Below, one piece after another: positions 5,176 through 10,260 of a DNA stretch of 10,846 nt. The stretch is from a virus. Below the pieces are notes generated by a model. The model was not told the origin of the DNA. It worked only from the letters and a program-made list of their open reading frames with translations, and ran no database searches. Position numbers and translations under genes: made by a program. Location of the stretch: the UHGV virus genome UHGV-0335014. One strand, given 5' to 3'. Position 1 is the stretch's first letter, and every line of letters starts with the position of its first letter.

Positions 5176-8019
5176 TCAATCTTTATCGTAAAAACTTCCA
5201 CGCCCGGCACGGGCGCGCCGTTCCATTTCTGCCCTGACCATTTCACCGACCAGTTTCGCCAGTTCGCGGGGATTCTGCGTAACAACGTTATGCAGATGAA
5301 CATGAATTTCACCGCCAAATCCGGAGGCAACAGGCTCCCGGTTACGGGAAGTTGCAGGAACTGATGCCACTGGCGATCGTATGGCCTCTGCCACCGGGCG
5401 GGAGCTGGCCGCAACAACAGGGACCAGCGCCGGAGACAGCGGAGCCGGAACCACAGGTGTGATATTAATTGCGGGGGCAGGCTTACTGACCTGCGCAATC
5501 TTCCGCTCCTGCCACTCCCCACGAACAGCAAGTGCGCGGGGCAGGTTCTTAAAGACAATATCGCCGAGGCCAATGCGTTTTTTCGTCTCATCAACCAGCT
5601 TACCTGTGTTATCAGCAATTTTGCTGAGTCTGCGTAGCGTACCGGTATTGCTGTCTGTGAGCGGTTTGTTGTCTTTGGGTTTATCACCTCCGGTGCCATT
5701 GCCATTTTCCACAGGCTTCGGCGGATTGATTTTCGCCAGGTCCCCCTGAAGCAAGGCAACCTTGTCCTGAAGAATGGCCGCACGCTGTGCGTCTTCGATT
5801 TTCTTGCGCGCCCTTTCCGCTTCATCCGGAAGCACACCGAGCTTTTCAAGTATCCACGCCAGCGTATCCAGCAACATTTTTGCAGGTGTCAGAACAAGTT
5901 GTAACGCACCGCCAAGAACGTTACCGAATATCTCGCCAGCACTGGTACATTTATCCAGCGTTTCCTTGCTGGACTCCATCGGTGACAGCAGCGATTTAAA
6001 CCAGTTAAACACCTGGCTGATCCCACTCCCGATTGCGTCAAAAACAGGACCAAACCGTTCAAAGGTTTCGCGCAACGGGGTCAGCCTTTCCATAATCCCG
6101 CTGAACACCCCGGCAAAAAATGCCCTGATGGGATCCCAGTATTTCCAGATAAGAACGGCAGCTCCGGCAAGCGCAGCCACGATAAGACCAACCGGACTGA
6201 ACAACGCCCCGATAGCGCCTCCCAGTAAAGAAACGGAACCCGTCACCATTCCCCACAGCGCAGGCAACACCCTGACGACATTCATTGACCGGGTAAGAAT
6301 GTCAAAACCAAGACGCAGGGTGGCCAGCTTCCCGTAAAGCACCCCAATAACCAGCGACAACGAGCCAATCGTTGCAGTCATTGCCAGCAGTGCACCGCCT
6401 GCAATCAGTAGCTGGCGCGTCAGTGCGGGATGGGCCTGCGCCAGCGCCGTCACCTTTGATACCACACGCGTGAGCCACTGCGTGACAGAACGCAGCGGAC
6501 CGTCAATCAGATCTGCAATGCGGATGCGCAACCCTTCCCATGCACTGCTGAGTGATTTCAGATCGCCGTCAAGGTTGTTGGCCATAACCTTTGCCGTGCG
6601 TTCAGCCTCACCGCGCGCCCCTTCAAGTTCTTTTCTCAGTTTGGGTAAGGAGCCGTCACCAGCCGCATCAACGAGGGCCATAAATGATGTGAAAGCCTCT
6701 TCTCCGGCAATGTCCTTAAAGAACGATACCCGGTCAACTTCCCCGTATTTGCGGGTAGCTTTATAAAGGTCAGCCAGCACATCCTCCATCGGGCGCATTT
6801 TGCCCCCGGCATCCGAGACAGACACGCCAAGCTCTTTCAGCGCCTCTGCTGCCGCCTTTGGCGGTGATGCCAGACGAGCCAGGCTGGCACGCATTGCCGT
6901 CCCGGCATCACTCCCTCTGATACCCATATTCGCCAGCACGCCCGCCATCGCTGCGGCCTGCTCCAGCGATATTCCCAGCTTACCCGCCACCGGACCTGCA
7001 TATTTCATGGTTTCGCCCAGCGCGCGAAGGTCAGTGTTAGTACGGGTAAACGCTGCTGTAAGCGTGTCACCGACCCGGTCCATCTGGTCAGCGGAGAGGC
7101 CGAACTGCGTCAGGATATTTGAGCCAATATCCGCCGTCTCGCCAAGGTCCATACCGCCAGCCGTTGCCATGCTCAGCACGCCCGGAAGCGCAGCCTGAAT
7201 GGCCTGCGGTGTGAAGCCAGCCATTGCAAGAAATGCCTGCCCACTGGCGGCATCGCCTGCGGTGAACTGCGTTTCAGAGCCAAGTTTTAACGCCTGCTCA
7301 CGCAGCGCCTTAAACTGCGGGCTGTTTTTGTCGATTCGCGTCAGTGCCTGAACGCGGGACATCTCTTTCCCGAACCCGATCGCAGGCTGCAAAAAACGCC
7401 CGGCAGCATAGCCGCCCGCCGCTGCCGCACCAATTGCCAGCGCACCACCTGTTTTCAGTTTTCCCGCTGTTTCCTGCGCGCGCGAATACCGCTCACGCGC
7501 CCGTGTTACACGCGCAAGCGCCTGCCGTTCGCGTTCAAGCTGGTTGTTGTACTGTTCGGTGCGTCTGATGGCCTGCTGGATGGTGTTATCGCTGCCTGTC
7601 AGGGAAATGCCGTGGCGTTTCAGCTCTCCGCCAAGCTCCCGCATTTTCTGAATTTCCCGTGTGCGCGATTCATTCAGGCGTTCAAGCCGGGTGCTTAACT
7701 GCTGCATCAGCTTTTGTTGTTTTTCGCTGAGCACTGTACCCGTGCGTTGTAACTGATTAAGGGCGTTAAGCTGGCGTCGTGCTTTCACGATGCCCGCATC
7801 CGCTTTACTGACAGCGTCACGGGCGCGCTCAAATGATCGCGCCTGACGCTCGAGATTTTTGATCGCCCCCTGCGTTCGCTGGATGGAGTCACCAAACTGC
7901 CCCATCAGGCGGCGGGCGTTTTCGGCAGGCCGGGTCAGCCTGTCAACGGCGCTGAAAGCGACCCGGATATCAAGAGTCTTCATTGTCTGCATTCCCGCTA
8001 CGAAGTGCCGCCCGCTCAC
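5176..8019 (-). CDS. T: Tail tape measure protein (P2 gpT-like)
   Basis: 947 aa. N-terminal region is rich in coiled-coil-like, charged sequence (RQLNALNQLQRTG...QQLSTRLERLNESRTREIQKMRELGGELKRHG), followed by Gly/Ala-rich and hydrophobic segments (LLIAGGALLAMTATIGSLSLVIGVLYG; GGAIGALFSPVGLIVAALAGAAVLIW), all typical of tape measure proteins. Sits between the E/E' chaperone genes and gpU. The ORF-track start is a GTG at 8019; ATGs at 7992 and 7983 are alternatives. Confidence 0.85.
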   Translation of the reverse strand: MSGRHFVAGMQTMKTLDIRVAFSAVDRLTRPAENARRLMGQFGDSIQRTQGAIKNLERQARSFERARDAVSKADAGIVKARRQLNALNQLQRTGTVLSEKQQKLMQQLSTRLERLNESRTREIQKMRELGGELKRHGISLTGSDNTIQQAIRRTEQYNNQLERERQALARVTRARERYSRAQETAGKLKTGGALAIGAAAAGGYAAGRFLQPAIGFGKEMSRVQALTRIDKNSPQFKALREQALKLGSETQFTAGDAASGQAFLAMAGFTPQAIQAALPGVLSMATAGGMDLGETADIGSNILTQFGLSADQMDRVGDTLTAAFTRTNTDLRALGETMKYAGPVAGKLGISLEQAAAMAGVLANMGIRGSDAGTAMRASLARLASPPKAAAEALKELGVSVSDAGGKMRPMEDVLADLYKATRKYGEVDRVSFFKDIAGEEAFTSFMALVDAAGDGSLPKLRKELEGARGEAERTAKVMANNLDGDLKSLSSAWEGLRIRIADLIDGPLRSVTQWLTRVVSKVTALAQAHPALTRQLLIAGGALLAMTATIGSLSLVIGVLYGKLATLRLGFDILTRSMNVVRVLPALWGMVTGSVSLLGGAIGALFSPVGLIVAALAGAAVLIWKYWDPIRAFFAGVFSGIMERLTPLRETFERFGPVFDAIGSGISQVFNWFKSLLSPMESSKETLDKCTSAGEIFGNVLGGALQLVLTPAKMLLDTLAWILEKLGVLPDEAERARKKIEDAQRAAILQDKVALLQGDLAKINPPKPVENGNGTGGDKPKDNKPLTDSNTGTLRRLSKIADNTGKLVDETKKRIGLGDIVFKNLPRALAVRGEWQERKIAQVSKPAPAINITPVVPAPLSPALVPVVAASSRPVAEAIRSPVASVPATSRNREPVASGFGGEIHVHLHNVVTQNPRELAKLVGEMVRAEMERRARAGRGSFYDKD

Positions 8020-8508
8020 GCCAGCTAACCACTTCGCCGGGCGTCATCATGAAGATTTCGGCGGGCGACCAGTTAAAAATGGCGGCAATATCCGCCACCA
8101 GATCTTCGATGTGCTCAAAGCACACCAGGGTGATTACGCTGCCGTCTCCTGCACGCTCTTCGCGCCAGAGTCTGGCTCGCTCATAAAATTTACAGCCACA
8201 GCGCACAACTGAATAAAATCGCGTGACGACATTTTTTTAATCATCACTTCATCCAGTCGTGGCGAGGTCACGCGAGGCAACAGCGTAAACATGGTATCCG
8301 CTTTCAGATTCAGCACATCAGACAGCGACAGACCACGCAGGGATCCAGCCTGCTCAATAGCCCCGGTGATCTCCACATACGTGATTTTTTCGCCACCACG
8401 CTCAATTGGTCGGGTCAGTTTTACGCCACGTTCGACAGCCATATCCTCACCTGCCGTCACATCATCCGCCACGGTGTTATTCCGGGTTTCAGTATCGATG
8501 TCTTTCAT
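7970..8508 (-). CDS. E+E': Predicted E+E' fusion product made by a programmed -1 translational frameshift at an A7 tract (minus-strand 8238..8232); E' portion ends at 7970
   Basis: The -1 frame relative to E is open from just after a TAA at 8242..8240 down to the stop at 7970. On the minus strand the E frame reads ATT AAA AAA ATG across a run of seven A (plus-strand T7 at 8232..8238). The E' reading frame overlaps the start of T. Conserved strategy in P2-like and other long-tailed phages. Confidence 0.5.
8134..8508 (-). CDS. E: Tail assembly chaperone gpE-like (P2 E family), zero-frame product
   Basis: 124 aa ORF between the tail tube and tape measure genes, with a strong AAGGAG Shine-Dalgarno 7 nt upstream of the ATG at 8508. 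Its 3' end is overlapped by a -1 frame ORF that runs on to 7970, the arrangement expected for the E/E+E' frameshifted chaperone pair of myovirus tails. Confidence 0.75.
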   Translation of the reverse strand: MKDIDTETRNNTVADDVTAGEDMAVERGVKLTRPIERGGEKITYVEITGAIEQAGSLRGLSLSDVLNLKADTMFTLLPRVTSPRLDEVMIKKMSSRDFIQLCAVAVNFMSEPDSGAKSVQETAA

Positions 8509-8563
8509 CAGTTGTCTCCTTTTCAGTCAGAGGCGACGCACTGCGCCGCCTGCATATTACTTA

Positions 8564-9076
8564 TCAGCCAAGCCCAAGCGCGGAACGGATACGGTCAGGC
8601 ACAATGTCCTTGCCGTCCTTCCGGTAGATGTGGTTCAACAGGTCGATTTCCCACAGCGGGCGATCGTTAACGCTCAGCTTGTAGTAGGTGTTTTTGACAG
8701 CGTAAGTGTGTGATGTGGCTTCGCCCTGTTTGGCTTCCCCCATATCAATTTCCGTCACACGCCCGCGCATCTCGATTTCATACAGATCGCTTTCTGCATC
8801 GGTGTAGTATTCACCCGCAAAACGCAGCAGCGTGCCGTCAATCGTGCCGCCATATTTAAGGAACAGCGCACGAACAGCTCCCCCCATGACAAAACTCGCA
8901 TCAAGCGCGGAGTCGTCCAGACCGAGATCAATACTTACCGCCCCCATCATGCCACCACCACGATAGCTGTCGGTTTTGCGCGTCAGTTTGGGCGGCGTGA
9001 CGGATGTCACTTTGCCCACTTCGTTTTCACCATCCACAAACAACGTAAAAAAGCGAAGATGTTTTGGTACAGCCAT
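8564..9076 (-). CDS. FII: Tail tube protein (P2 gpFII-like)
   Basis: 170 aa ORF directly downstream of the sheath gene, with the start overlapping the sheath stop (minus strand ..TGATG..) and a GGGAGGTG Shine-Dalgarno. Size and position match gpFII (about 172 aa in P2). Confidence 0.8.
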   Translation of the reverse strand: MAVPKHLRFFTLFVDGENEVGKVTSVTPPKLTRKTDSYRGGGMMGAVSIDLGLDDSALDASFVMGGAVRALFLKYGGTIDGTLLRFAGEYYTDAESDLYEIEMRGRVTEIDMGEAKQGEATSHTYAVKNTYYKLSVNDRPLWEIDLLNHIYRKDGKDIVPDRIRSALGLG

Positions 9077-10260
9077 CAGGCACCTCCCAGCACCGCAAAT
9101 GCGGGACCAAAGAATTCATCAGTAAACGTCTGGTAAAGCTCCATGTCTTCCAGTGGCGGAACGGGCGTATATTTGTAGCGAATACGCACACGTCCCTGAC
9201 GTAAATTCGTGGTGCCGTTATCCACCACGTCATACCAGCACTCCGCACCAATCAGTTTCCCGGCAGTAACCAGCGAATCCAGTTTTGCCCTGATGGCGCT
9301 GATAACATCCTTCACGTTCGCAGGTGTCAGTGGACTGTCGATGGTTTCAAACTGCGCTTCCGCAATTGAATCAGCCAGCACCTGTGCGGTTCGGGTATAC
9401 ACCTCAAAGATGTAGGCGTTCGTTTCCGGTGTGCGGTTGCCCCAGAAGCGGAACCCGTTGCGACGAATAATGGTCGTGATTTCTTTGTTGTTGAGGCTGT
9501 TGGCATCACTGTCTTCGGCCTGCAACGACCAGAACACATGCCTGGACATTCCCAGCACATTTTTAACCGGAACGTTGGACAGCGATTTGTGCCAGCCCTG
9601 CTCATGGTCAATGTACGCACGAAGGCCGCACGCATAAGCAGGCGCGGGGAACGTTTCGTTTTTGCCACTTTTCGGGTTGTAGGCGATGAAGTCAGGCCAT
9701 AAGAGCATCACCTCACGTTCGTTGAATTTCTGGCGGTAGGTAATCGCCTCAGCCATCGTGTTACAACCATGACATGTGGCATACACAAACGCGCGCAGTT
9801 TACCCGCAATCACGCACAGGGATTTTGTCACCGCCTCCGTGTCCAGCTCCGGCGCGGCCAGAATACGCGGACGGTATCCGATGCTTTCATCCTGCTCTGC
9901 AACAAGCAGCGCATACATCCCCGTATAGCTGCCGTCAGATTCAGAACCACCGATAACCAGTTGATCCTGCGTTTTTCCGTCTTCTTCTTTGTGTTCAGCC
10001 ACGCGAACGACGATCACCTTTGTGCTCACCTGGTCTGCGATGGCCTTAAGCGCACGATAAAGCGTCCCCGTTGTTCCGCATTTTCCCAGCACGTCATTGA
10101 CGCGGGTCAGCAATGTGGGCTTGTTCAGCGGGAACAGCTCCGCGTCCGCATCATCCGCCGTTGCCACGATACCGATAACGCTGGAATCAACATCGTTAAT
10201 CGCTGTTACCAGGTCGGTATTTTCCGTAACACGGGCACCATGAAAACGAGTTTCACTCAT
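9076..10260 (-). CDS. FI: Contractile tail sheath protein (P2 gpFI-like)
   Basis: 394 aa. Conserved blocks recalled from P2 FI and sheath homologues: AELFPLNKP, GTLYRALKAIADQ, KLRAFVYA, YRQKFNEREVMLLWPDF, HEQGWHKSLSNV, GFRFWGNRT, VYTRTAQVLAD, YKYTPVPPLE. Confidence 0.9.
   Translation of the reverse strand: MSETRFHGARVTENTDLVTAINDVDSSVIGIVATADDADAELFPLNKPTLLTRVNDVLGKCGTTGTLYRALKAIADQVSTKVIVVRVAEHKEEDGKTQDQLVIGGSESDGSYTGMYALLVAEQDESIGYRPRILAAPELDTEAVTKSLCVIAGKLRAFVYATCHGCNTMAEAITYRQKFNEREVMLLWPDFIAYNPKSGKNETFPAPAYACGLRAYIDHEQGWHKSLSNVPVKNVLGMSRHVFWSLQAEDSDANSLNNKEITTIIRRNGFRFWGNRTPETNAYIFEVYTRTAQVLADSIAEAQFETIDSPLTPANVKDVISAIRAKLDSLVTAGKLIGAECWYDVVDNGTTNLRQGRVRIRYKYTPVPPLEDMELYQTFTDEFFGPAFAVLGGA

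Follow-up and report, generated by a model that had tools for sequence, protein, structure and literature searches.

A candidate A_AAT_TTT slip site for the -1 frameshift of the E/E' tail chaperone genes in a P2-like Escherichia coli prophage

The stretch of DNA analysed here (10,846 nucleotides, UHGV virus genome UHGV-0335014, hereafter the window) is a P2-like E. coli prophage. Over the queried stretch it is 100% identical to Xuanwuvirus P88_4B11 (NC_049391 / LR595891), a P2-like phage of the family Peduoviridae; its identity is 99.3% with Citrobacter phage phiSM and about 85% with phage P88. Its tail genes follow each other on the minus strand in the order sheath, tube, E, -1-frame E' and T, and E and E' are thus placed on one strand between the tube gene (FII) and the tape-measure gene (Table 1). 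The Pfam domain PhageMin_Tail has been recorded on homologues of T in relatives.

Table 1. Features of the E/E' region and neighbouring tail genes (window coordinates)
Feature	Position	Strand	Basis
Sheath gene	10260..9076	-	gene order
Tail tube gene (FII homologue), directly upstream of E	8564..9076	-	Pfam Phage_tube recorded on homologues
Gene E, putative tail assembly chaperone, 124 aa; ATG 8508, TAA 8136..8134	8134..8508	-	ORF and homology
-1-frame TAA closing E' upstream; overlaps the first two A's of A7	8237..8239	-	sequence
A7 tract, codons AAA AAA A/TG (Lys-Lys-Met)	8232..8238	-	sequence
Proposed slippery heptamer A AAT TTT: A of GTA, AAT (8190-8188), TTT (8187-8185)	8185..8191	-	X_XXY_YYZ motif and homology
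E' extension after the proposed slip; first new codon TAT (8185-8183), stop TGA 7972..7970	7970..8185	-	ORF and Pfam
Tape-measure gene T; ATG 7983..7981	5176..7983	-	annotated CDS of NC_049391

Gene E is preceded by a Shine-Dalgarno sequence (AAGGAG, 8521..8516). Its product matches phrog_103 'tail protein' (E=1e-36) and scores 20.6 bits with Pfam Phage_TAC_7, under the cut-off of 25. It aligns with P2 gpE and shares its invariant columns. In a protein alignment of 18 sequences (33-86% identity), residues D97, L101, V106 and F108 of E are family-invariant, and the residue that follows F108 is Leu in every sequence except in the window lineage, which has Met.

The -1 frame is open from 8236 to 7970 (88 codons), with an overlap of 103 nt with E, and its end overlaps the start of T by 14 nt. 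A previous reading of the same DNA from its letters alone (the sequence-only reading) had correctly described this frame as open to 7970 and running into the start of T. It had located the TAA that closes the frame upstream at 8242..8240; these positions read GAT and the TAA is found at 8239..8237. The -1-frame product matches Pfam Phage_P2_GpE (PF06528) with 46.3 bits (cut-off 23, E=2.9e-12), and the match covers its C-terminal 36 residues. E' therefore carries a GpE domain and lacks an independent start site: GTG 8125 is not preceded by a Shine-Dalgarno sequence at suitable spacing, the nearest AGGAG ending 20 nt before it, and GTG 8206 is preceded by none. Taken together, the location between the tube gene and T, the GpE domain in the -1 frame and the P2-like arrangement indicate a P2-type chaperone pair. 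We therefore consider that E and E' are almost certainly a P2-type tail assembly chaperone pair using programmed -1 frameshifting, as the sequence-only reading had proposed; gene order, the Phage_P2_GpE match and the P2 precedent all support that part of it.

The only canonical X_XXY_YYZ heptamer in E of the window is A_AAT_TTT, which lies inside the E/E' overlap. It is located at the family-invariant V-x-F codons, a position homologous to that of T_TTT_TTG in P2, and it is invariant in the 113 window-type loci (113/113). This site stands just outside the interval flagged by the sequence-only reading (8200..8245) and had been missed. The corresponding position was then compared in other species, using 80 genomes of different species that provided 76 intact loci, gathered with the E' alignment. 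About 72 of these 76 loci read xxT TTT TTN at the V-x-F codons; several of the exceptions are cases in which the script picked the wrong Phe codon and are truly T_TTT_TTC, and only one locus (L109) genuinely lacks the motif. In many of these cross-species loci E and E' overlap by just 34 nt, which leaves no room there for a slip site further upstream. The conserved slip position, at V-x-F(-L), is about 45 nt downstream of the A7 tract.

The window itself reads GTA AAT TTT ATG (N-F-M) at this position, and the P2-register T_TTT_TTG is absent. We regard this as a variant of the site that leaves membership of the chaperone family unaffected. Indeed, the presence of TTT ATG in place of TTT TTG in this lineage destroys the P2 register, while the overlapping heptamer in the upstream register survives. 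We also considered whether all V-N-F-L lineages keep the GTA Val codon, from which the heptamer takes its first A; they do not, as locus L178 has GTT, and the upstream register is thus not generally required where T_TTT_TTG exists. Conservation of this codon was therefore abandoned as an argument. Phage phiSM is identical to the window across the whole stretch from A7 to the heptamer, and this temperate phage forms plaques and lysogens (PMC6456863). The N-F-M arrangement is therefore compatible with a working phage, and the viability of phiSM gives indirect support to the predicted fusion.

The two reading frames are constrained differently on either side of the heptamer. Between A7 and the heptamer, the zero frame of the window is identical to P88, L181 and L178 at 11, 9 and 10 of 13 residues, versus 4, 6 and 7 of 13 in the -1 frame, in which stops are present. 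After the heptamer, the corresponding values are 8, 8 and 7 of 16 residues in the zero frame versus 12, 11 and 10 of 16 in the -1 frame. Among 66 window-type haplotypes, third positions of the zero frame are polymorphic in 8 of 13 codons before the heptamer versus 3 of 16 after it (Fisher p=0.027), a count limited to the two regions flanking the heptamer, the outer two being inflated by misalignment and indels. It is thus at the heptamer, and not at A7, that the -1 frame takes over from the zero frame as the more conserved one.

The sequence-only reading had assigned the slip to the A7 tract. The tract is present as it described, on the minus strand at 8238..8232 (T7 on the plus strand), with the zero frame reading ATT (8241-8239), AAA (8238-8236), AAA (8235-8233) and ATG (8232-8230). 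Its presence is no more than expected by chance, AAAAAAA being observed twice in the window versus 2.63 times expected. Only 13 stop-free -1-frame codons are needed between A7 and the conserved heptamer, and we estimate that such a stretch arises by chance about half the time. The phasing of the tract is T_AAA_AAA followed by ATG, which is not a canonical X_XXY_YYZ heptamer: the A-site tRNA-Lys could re-pair, but the P-site tRNA would have to re-pair to UAA, so that A7 would behave as an A_AAA tetramer. The earlier remark that this heptamer is not a textbook one therefore stands. The non-standard mechanism suggested along with it is not needed, A_AAT_TTT being canonical, and the recoding is of an ordinary, known kind.

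According to a first alternative, A7 (8238..8232) would be the main slip site or a significant second route in the N-F-M lineage. Either tRNA-Lys would move from AAA (8235-8233) to AAA (8236-8234) or RNA polymerase would insert an extra A, giving E(1-92)+NVVTRFYSVVRCGCKF+YERARLW..., and this would compensate for the lost T_TTT_TTG register. We consider this unlikely. It is in agreement with the coexistence of A7 and an open -1 frame, with the intrinsic shiftiness of A-runs and tRNA-Lys, and with the window-type loci, in which A7 is invariant (113/113) and the -1 frame is open from A7 in 110 of 113, and with the divergent L087-L089, where this frame is open too; moreover, among the sampled A7-bearing lineages, loss of T_TTT_TTG accompanies absence of the TGA described below. 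As A7 and the heptamer are both invariant in 113 of 113 loci, the window lineage alone does not discriminate between the two sites, and the comparison with relatives is more informative. Phages P88, Chuche, PhiR44_2 and 500465-2 and locus L181 keep an identical A7 and have a -1-frame TGA (CGT GAC) 15-18 nt downstream; a slip on A7 in these P88-type phages would give ...KKNGIP-stop, ending within four to five codons. A7 is thus conserved where it is useless for E', and its conservation needs no frameshift explanation. This -1-frame stop is also present in L178, which has no A7. In 3 of the 113 window-type IMG/VR loci (L019 and L022/L024), prophages that may or may not be viable, CGC>CGT, synonymous in E, creates this TGA as well; two independent backgrounds carry it, which differ at 58 of 2100 sites and are each nearer to TGA-free loci. 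More distantly, no A-run is found at this position in the P0051, Salmonella, Klebsiella, Enterobacter, Yersinia and P2 lineages, where the homologues read AAG CGC, GCA AAG, AAC GAA, GTC ACG and similar. A fusion at A7 would also replace E residues 93-108, including the invariant D97, L101, V106 and F108, with a peptide that is unconserved in the -1 frame, whereas the zero frame is conserved there. Finally, the A_AAA tetramer left by the T_AAA_AAA phasing gives 0.13-0.26% frameshifting in E. coli reporters (PMC4066793 Table S2), seven A's are fewer than the runs of about 9 associated with bacterial transcriptional slippage (PMC5009743), and no structure was found after A7 (z = 0.01). Database fusions at A7 (P0020, P0021, P0057) were discarded as junction evidence: their contigs carry A8 in the DNA, an indel or read error that is silent on ribosomal slippage. 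Such contigs (P0021 and similar) do show that the tract varies in length, and for other database fusions (P0048, P0059, P0082) the junction is the T-run or another site. The sequence-only reading had itself held that homologues joining E' elsewhere would speak against A7, and they do so, at the V-x-F(-L) position. A7 would yield at most a trace by-product; very probably it does not serve as the slip site, and it is most likely a bystander, an incidental Lys-Lys-Met string made of two preferred Lys codons and ATG.

The other alternatives appear even less attractive. That A_AAU_UUU and A7 act as two sites which together compensate for the loss of T_TTT_TTG in the N-F-M lineage (about 600 of 5,426 complete E. 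coli genomes) is very unlikely; if it were true, the phage would make two E+E' isoforms differing in a 16-residue linker, or would keep the A-run as a back-up. A model without frameshift, in which E' would be translated from an internal start at GTG 8125 (51 aa) or GTG 8206, could call on the 51-aa ORF present in GenBank and RefSeq (8125..7970), on the 78-aa GTG ORF (8206..7970) and on phrog_1756, which aligns from residue 12 of the -1 frame. We find it highly improbable: neither GTG has a usable Shine-Dalgarno sequence, automatic gene callers output separate ORFs for any open frame, in P2 both the annotation and the literature give the homologous frame as extending E in -1, and the conserved in-frame heptamer (about 72 of 76 loci) would be left unexplained. 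The starting point of the phrog_1756 alignment probably reflects ORFs called from GTG 8206 and is uninformative on the junction. Finally, E' could be decaying, the TTG>ATG change having killed the frameshift and left tail-defective prophages. The P2-register heptamer is indeed broken and most sampled copies are prophages in genomes, but the 113 IMG/VR loci keep an intact E', better conserved than the tail of E that overlaps it, about 600 complete E. coli genomes are at least 95% identical over the E/E' region, and the window matches a classified phage genome. The plaque-forming phiSM, with its identical segment, largely refutes this model, to which we give next to no weight.

We therefore favour a slip at A_AAT_TTT (8191..8185) producing E+E', with A7 incidental, and judge it likely on the basis of homology, motif rules and comparative data. 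The gene order, domains, frame geometry, heptamer and its phasing, conservation and stop codons in relatives are observed; that the slip occurs, its place, its frequency and the chaperone function are inferred. Briefly, most ribosomes would stop at the E terminator and release the 124-aa E. A minority would slip back by one nucleotide on A_AAU_UUU, the P-site tRNA-Asn re-pairing from AAU to AAA and the A-site tRNA-Phe from UUU to UUU, and would resume reading in the -1 frame with TAT GAG CGA... The predicted E+E' product has 179 aa; it is joined at ...DFIQLCAVAVNF/YERARLWREER... and carries the GpE domain at its C-terminus. A slip on the heptamer is expected to give the tryptic junction peptide DFIQLCAVAVNFYER, and a slip on A7 the peptides NVVTR / FYSVVR instead. 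By analogy with E/E+E' of P2 and G/GT of lambda, tail assembly would involve the action of both E and E+E' on the tape-measure protein, and the slip frequency would set their ratio.

The efficiency of such sites has been measured in E. coli reporters. A_AAU_UUU gave 0.070, 0.355 and 11.4% frameshifting with no stimulator, the IS911 stimulators and the IS3 pseudoknot, respectively (PMC4066793, Tables S2 and S3), and U_UUU_UUG, the P2 heptamer, gave 0.118, 0.247 and 0.765% under the same reporter conditions (PMC4066793). In the presence of the pseudoknot, the tetramers U_UUU and A_AAA reached 0.80% and 0.26%, and a correctly phased A_AAA_AAA reached 24.8% (PMC4066793). A_AAU_UUU, thus shift-prone in these reporters, is strongly under-represented in E. 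coli genes (z = -9.1), and R_RRU_UUY motifs were named among the frameshift-prone ones in a systematic E. coli survey (PMC4066793). The value of only 0.07% obtained for A_AAU_UUU without stimulator counts against the proposed site.

A downstream stem-loop or pseudoknot, which the sequence-only reading had suggested looking for, was not supported after either candidate site: single-sequence folds were no better than shuffles (z-scores from -1.2 to +1.4 overall; -1.19, 0.01 and -0.82 for the 3' structure, the second being that after A7). The consensus fold of six relatives (alifold) contained weak irregular pairs only, with a covariation term of +0.89. A stable conserved structure of the IS3, IS911 or dnaX type, 5-9 nt downstream, is thus not observed. 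A conserved 9-bp hairpin (8127..8107) was rejected as a stimulator; it stands downstream of the heptamer by about 57 nt, and its sequence codes for the conserved residues VCFEHI. As no stimulator was found, the native efficiency is unexplained, as it is for P2, which shifts at TTTTTTG and has no downstream hairpin (PMC3091744).

Several known systems can be compared with the window. In P2, the programmed -1 frameshift of E and E+E' belongs to the FETUD tail operon (Christie et al. 2002, as cited in PMC3091744). The P2 record (NC_001895) joins E and E' into one CDS and labels GGT TTT TTG as 'site of -1 translational frameshift', so that the use of TTTTTTG by P2, already mentioned in the sequence-only reading, agrees with both this record and PMC3091744. 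The two phages share the order FII tube, E, E' and T, homologous E and E' (Phage_P2_GpE), a -1 extension overlapping both the end of E and the start of T, a slip position close to the C-terminus of E, at the invariant V-x-F(-L) codons, and no evident downstream stimulatory structure. They differ in the heptamer: P2 slips on T_TTT_TTG, whereas the T_TTT_ATG of the window cannot support A-site re-pairing, which leaves A_AAT_TTT, one codon upstream, as the usable heptamer. They also differ in the length of E (124 aa in the window versus 91 aa in P2), in the number of codons by which E continues past the slip (16 versus 6) and in the -1-open overlap (103 nt versus 37 nt); moreover, the P2 site is verified, whereas that of the window is proposed from its sequence. 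The P2 frameshift is said to reach roughly 10% (attributed to Christie et al. 2002).

Phages P88, Chuche, PhiR44_2 and 500465-2 (Xuanwuvirus / Gemsvirus) resemble the window more closely, with about 85% nucleotide identity, the A7 tract and the GTA AAT TTT context. They differ from it in reading AAT TTT TTG, so that A_AAT_TTT and T_TTT_TTG are both available, and in having the -1-frame TGA between A7 and the heptamer. The sequence GTC CCT TTC TTG is found in Klebsiella phage ST16-OXA48phi5.4 (Reipivirus) and in a K. michiganensis prophage; as in the window, the P2 register is broken and only a heptamer in the upstream register, C_CCT_TTC, is left at the same codon position. Their heptamer is C_CCU_UUC and not A_AAU_UUU, and their E protein is about 50% identical. 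Lambda G / GT shares a -1 frameshift between the tail tube and tape-measure genes with a fixed low long:short ratio (PMC5009743), but lambda is a siphovirus, its heptamer is G_GGA_AAG and there is no sequence similarity.

Diversity of heptamers among tail-chaperone sites was reportedly already known (Xu, Hendrix and Duda in 2004), and knowledge of tail-chaperone frameshifting in general is unchanged by the window. What the comparison adds is that a programmed slip site can change its position by a single codon, through overlapping heptamers (AAT TTT TTG) of which one is later lost (AAT TTT ATG); the Klebsiella phages represent a parallel one-codon shift. The main consequence concerns annotation. 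In the public records sampled, among the matches listed, E' appears as a free-standing 51-aa ORF (8125..7970) named 'tail protein / P2 GpE family protein', and none of these records carries a slippage annotation for this phage group. The prophage family concerned is common, being present in 1,374 of 5,426 complete E. coli genomes, about 600 of which have at least 95% nucleotide identity to the E/E' region of the window. For these phages, the correct E' product is most likely the 179-aa E+E' joined at 8185.

In the P0051 lineage of E. coli prophages (loci L178 and L180), the sequence reads GTT AAT TTT TTG and a -1-frame TAA directly adjoins T_TTT_TTG, the -1 frame being open from 1 nt before the Phe codon. 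Because this TAA abuts T_TTT_TTG, slippage in this lineage is confined to the register used by phage P2. Two further loci, from Klebsiella phage ST16-OXA48phi5.4 (L090) and K. michiganensis (L109), have the heptamer of the P2 register broken (TTC TTG), and the sole heptamer left is C_CCT_TTC, one codon upstream. Both display the same register shift as the window and constitute an independent example of it.

The 9-bp hairpin listed in the table is kept in six relatives; in two sequences, both bases of one pair have changed. This hairpin lies ~57 nt beyond the heptamer proposed as slip site (A_AAT_TTT), and the same nucleotides code for the conserved VCFEHI of E', the -1-frame extension of E.

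Features located downstream of the E stop (window coordinates)
Feature	Position	Strand	Location
9-bp hairpin (GUGUGCUUUGAGCACAU region)	8107..8127	minus	directly past E stop
Protospacer region	8016..8050	minus	inside E'

In the GenBank and RefSeq records of the phage group, and among the E. coli genome entries listed, E' is entered as a separate 51-aa ORF with a GTG start (7970..8125, minus strand) named "tail protein" or "GpE family phage tail protein", and the annotation of E' in these same records and entries carries no ribosomal-slippage join. By contrast, the record of P2 itself includes the E/E' join.

Comparison of window 7960..8300 with 5,426 complete E. coli genomes places this prophage family in 1,374 of them: ~600 carry the type of the window (N-F-M, AAT TTT ATG; at least 95 % identity) and ~770 the P88 type (N-F-L, AAT TTT TTG; 80-90 %). 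The N- and C-terminal modules of the E proteins are mosaic, which implies recombination inside the E gene.

Citrobacter phage phiSM (OR565851) is 99.3 % identical to the window over the compared region. PMC6456863 places phiSM among the siphoviruses and gives its tail as long and non-contractile. Genes for the tail tube, the E/E' pair, the tape-measure protein T and a sheath are present in the window; this gene content does not obviously match the published morphology of phiSM.

A type I-E CRISPR array of E. coli strain GmM066 (NZ_CM183652.1) includes a spacer, ATGACGCCCGGCGAAGTGGTTAGCTGGCGTGA, that matches window 8047..8016 at 100%, with an adjoining ATG PAM at 8050..8048. This spacer is apparently leader-proximal and looks like natural CRISPR immunity against the phage family of the window.

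Finally, the seven-A tract of E (window 8232..8238) is replaced at the equivalent position by eight A in two contigs (L174 and L175; Logan ERR13669365 and ERR13868096), in which E and E' are joined as a single 179-aa ORF (P0021, with 15 member sequences); similar proteins are P0020 and P0057. This A7/A8 tract is a hot spot either for indels or for sequencing errors. From an A8 variant no plain E would be produced, and the fusion would be made without the conserved C-terminal core of E.
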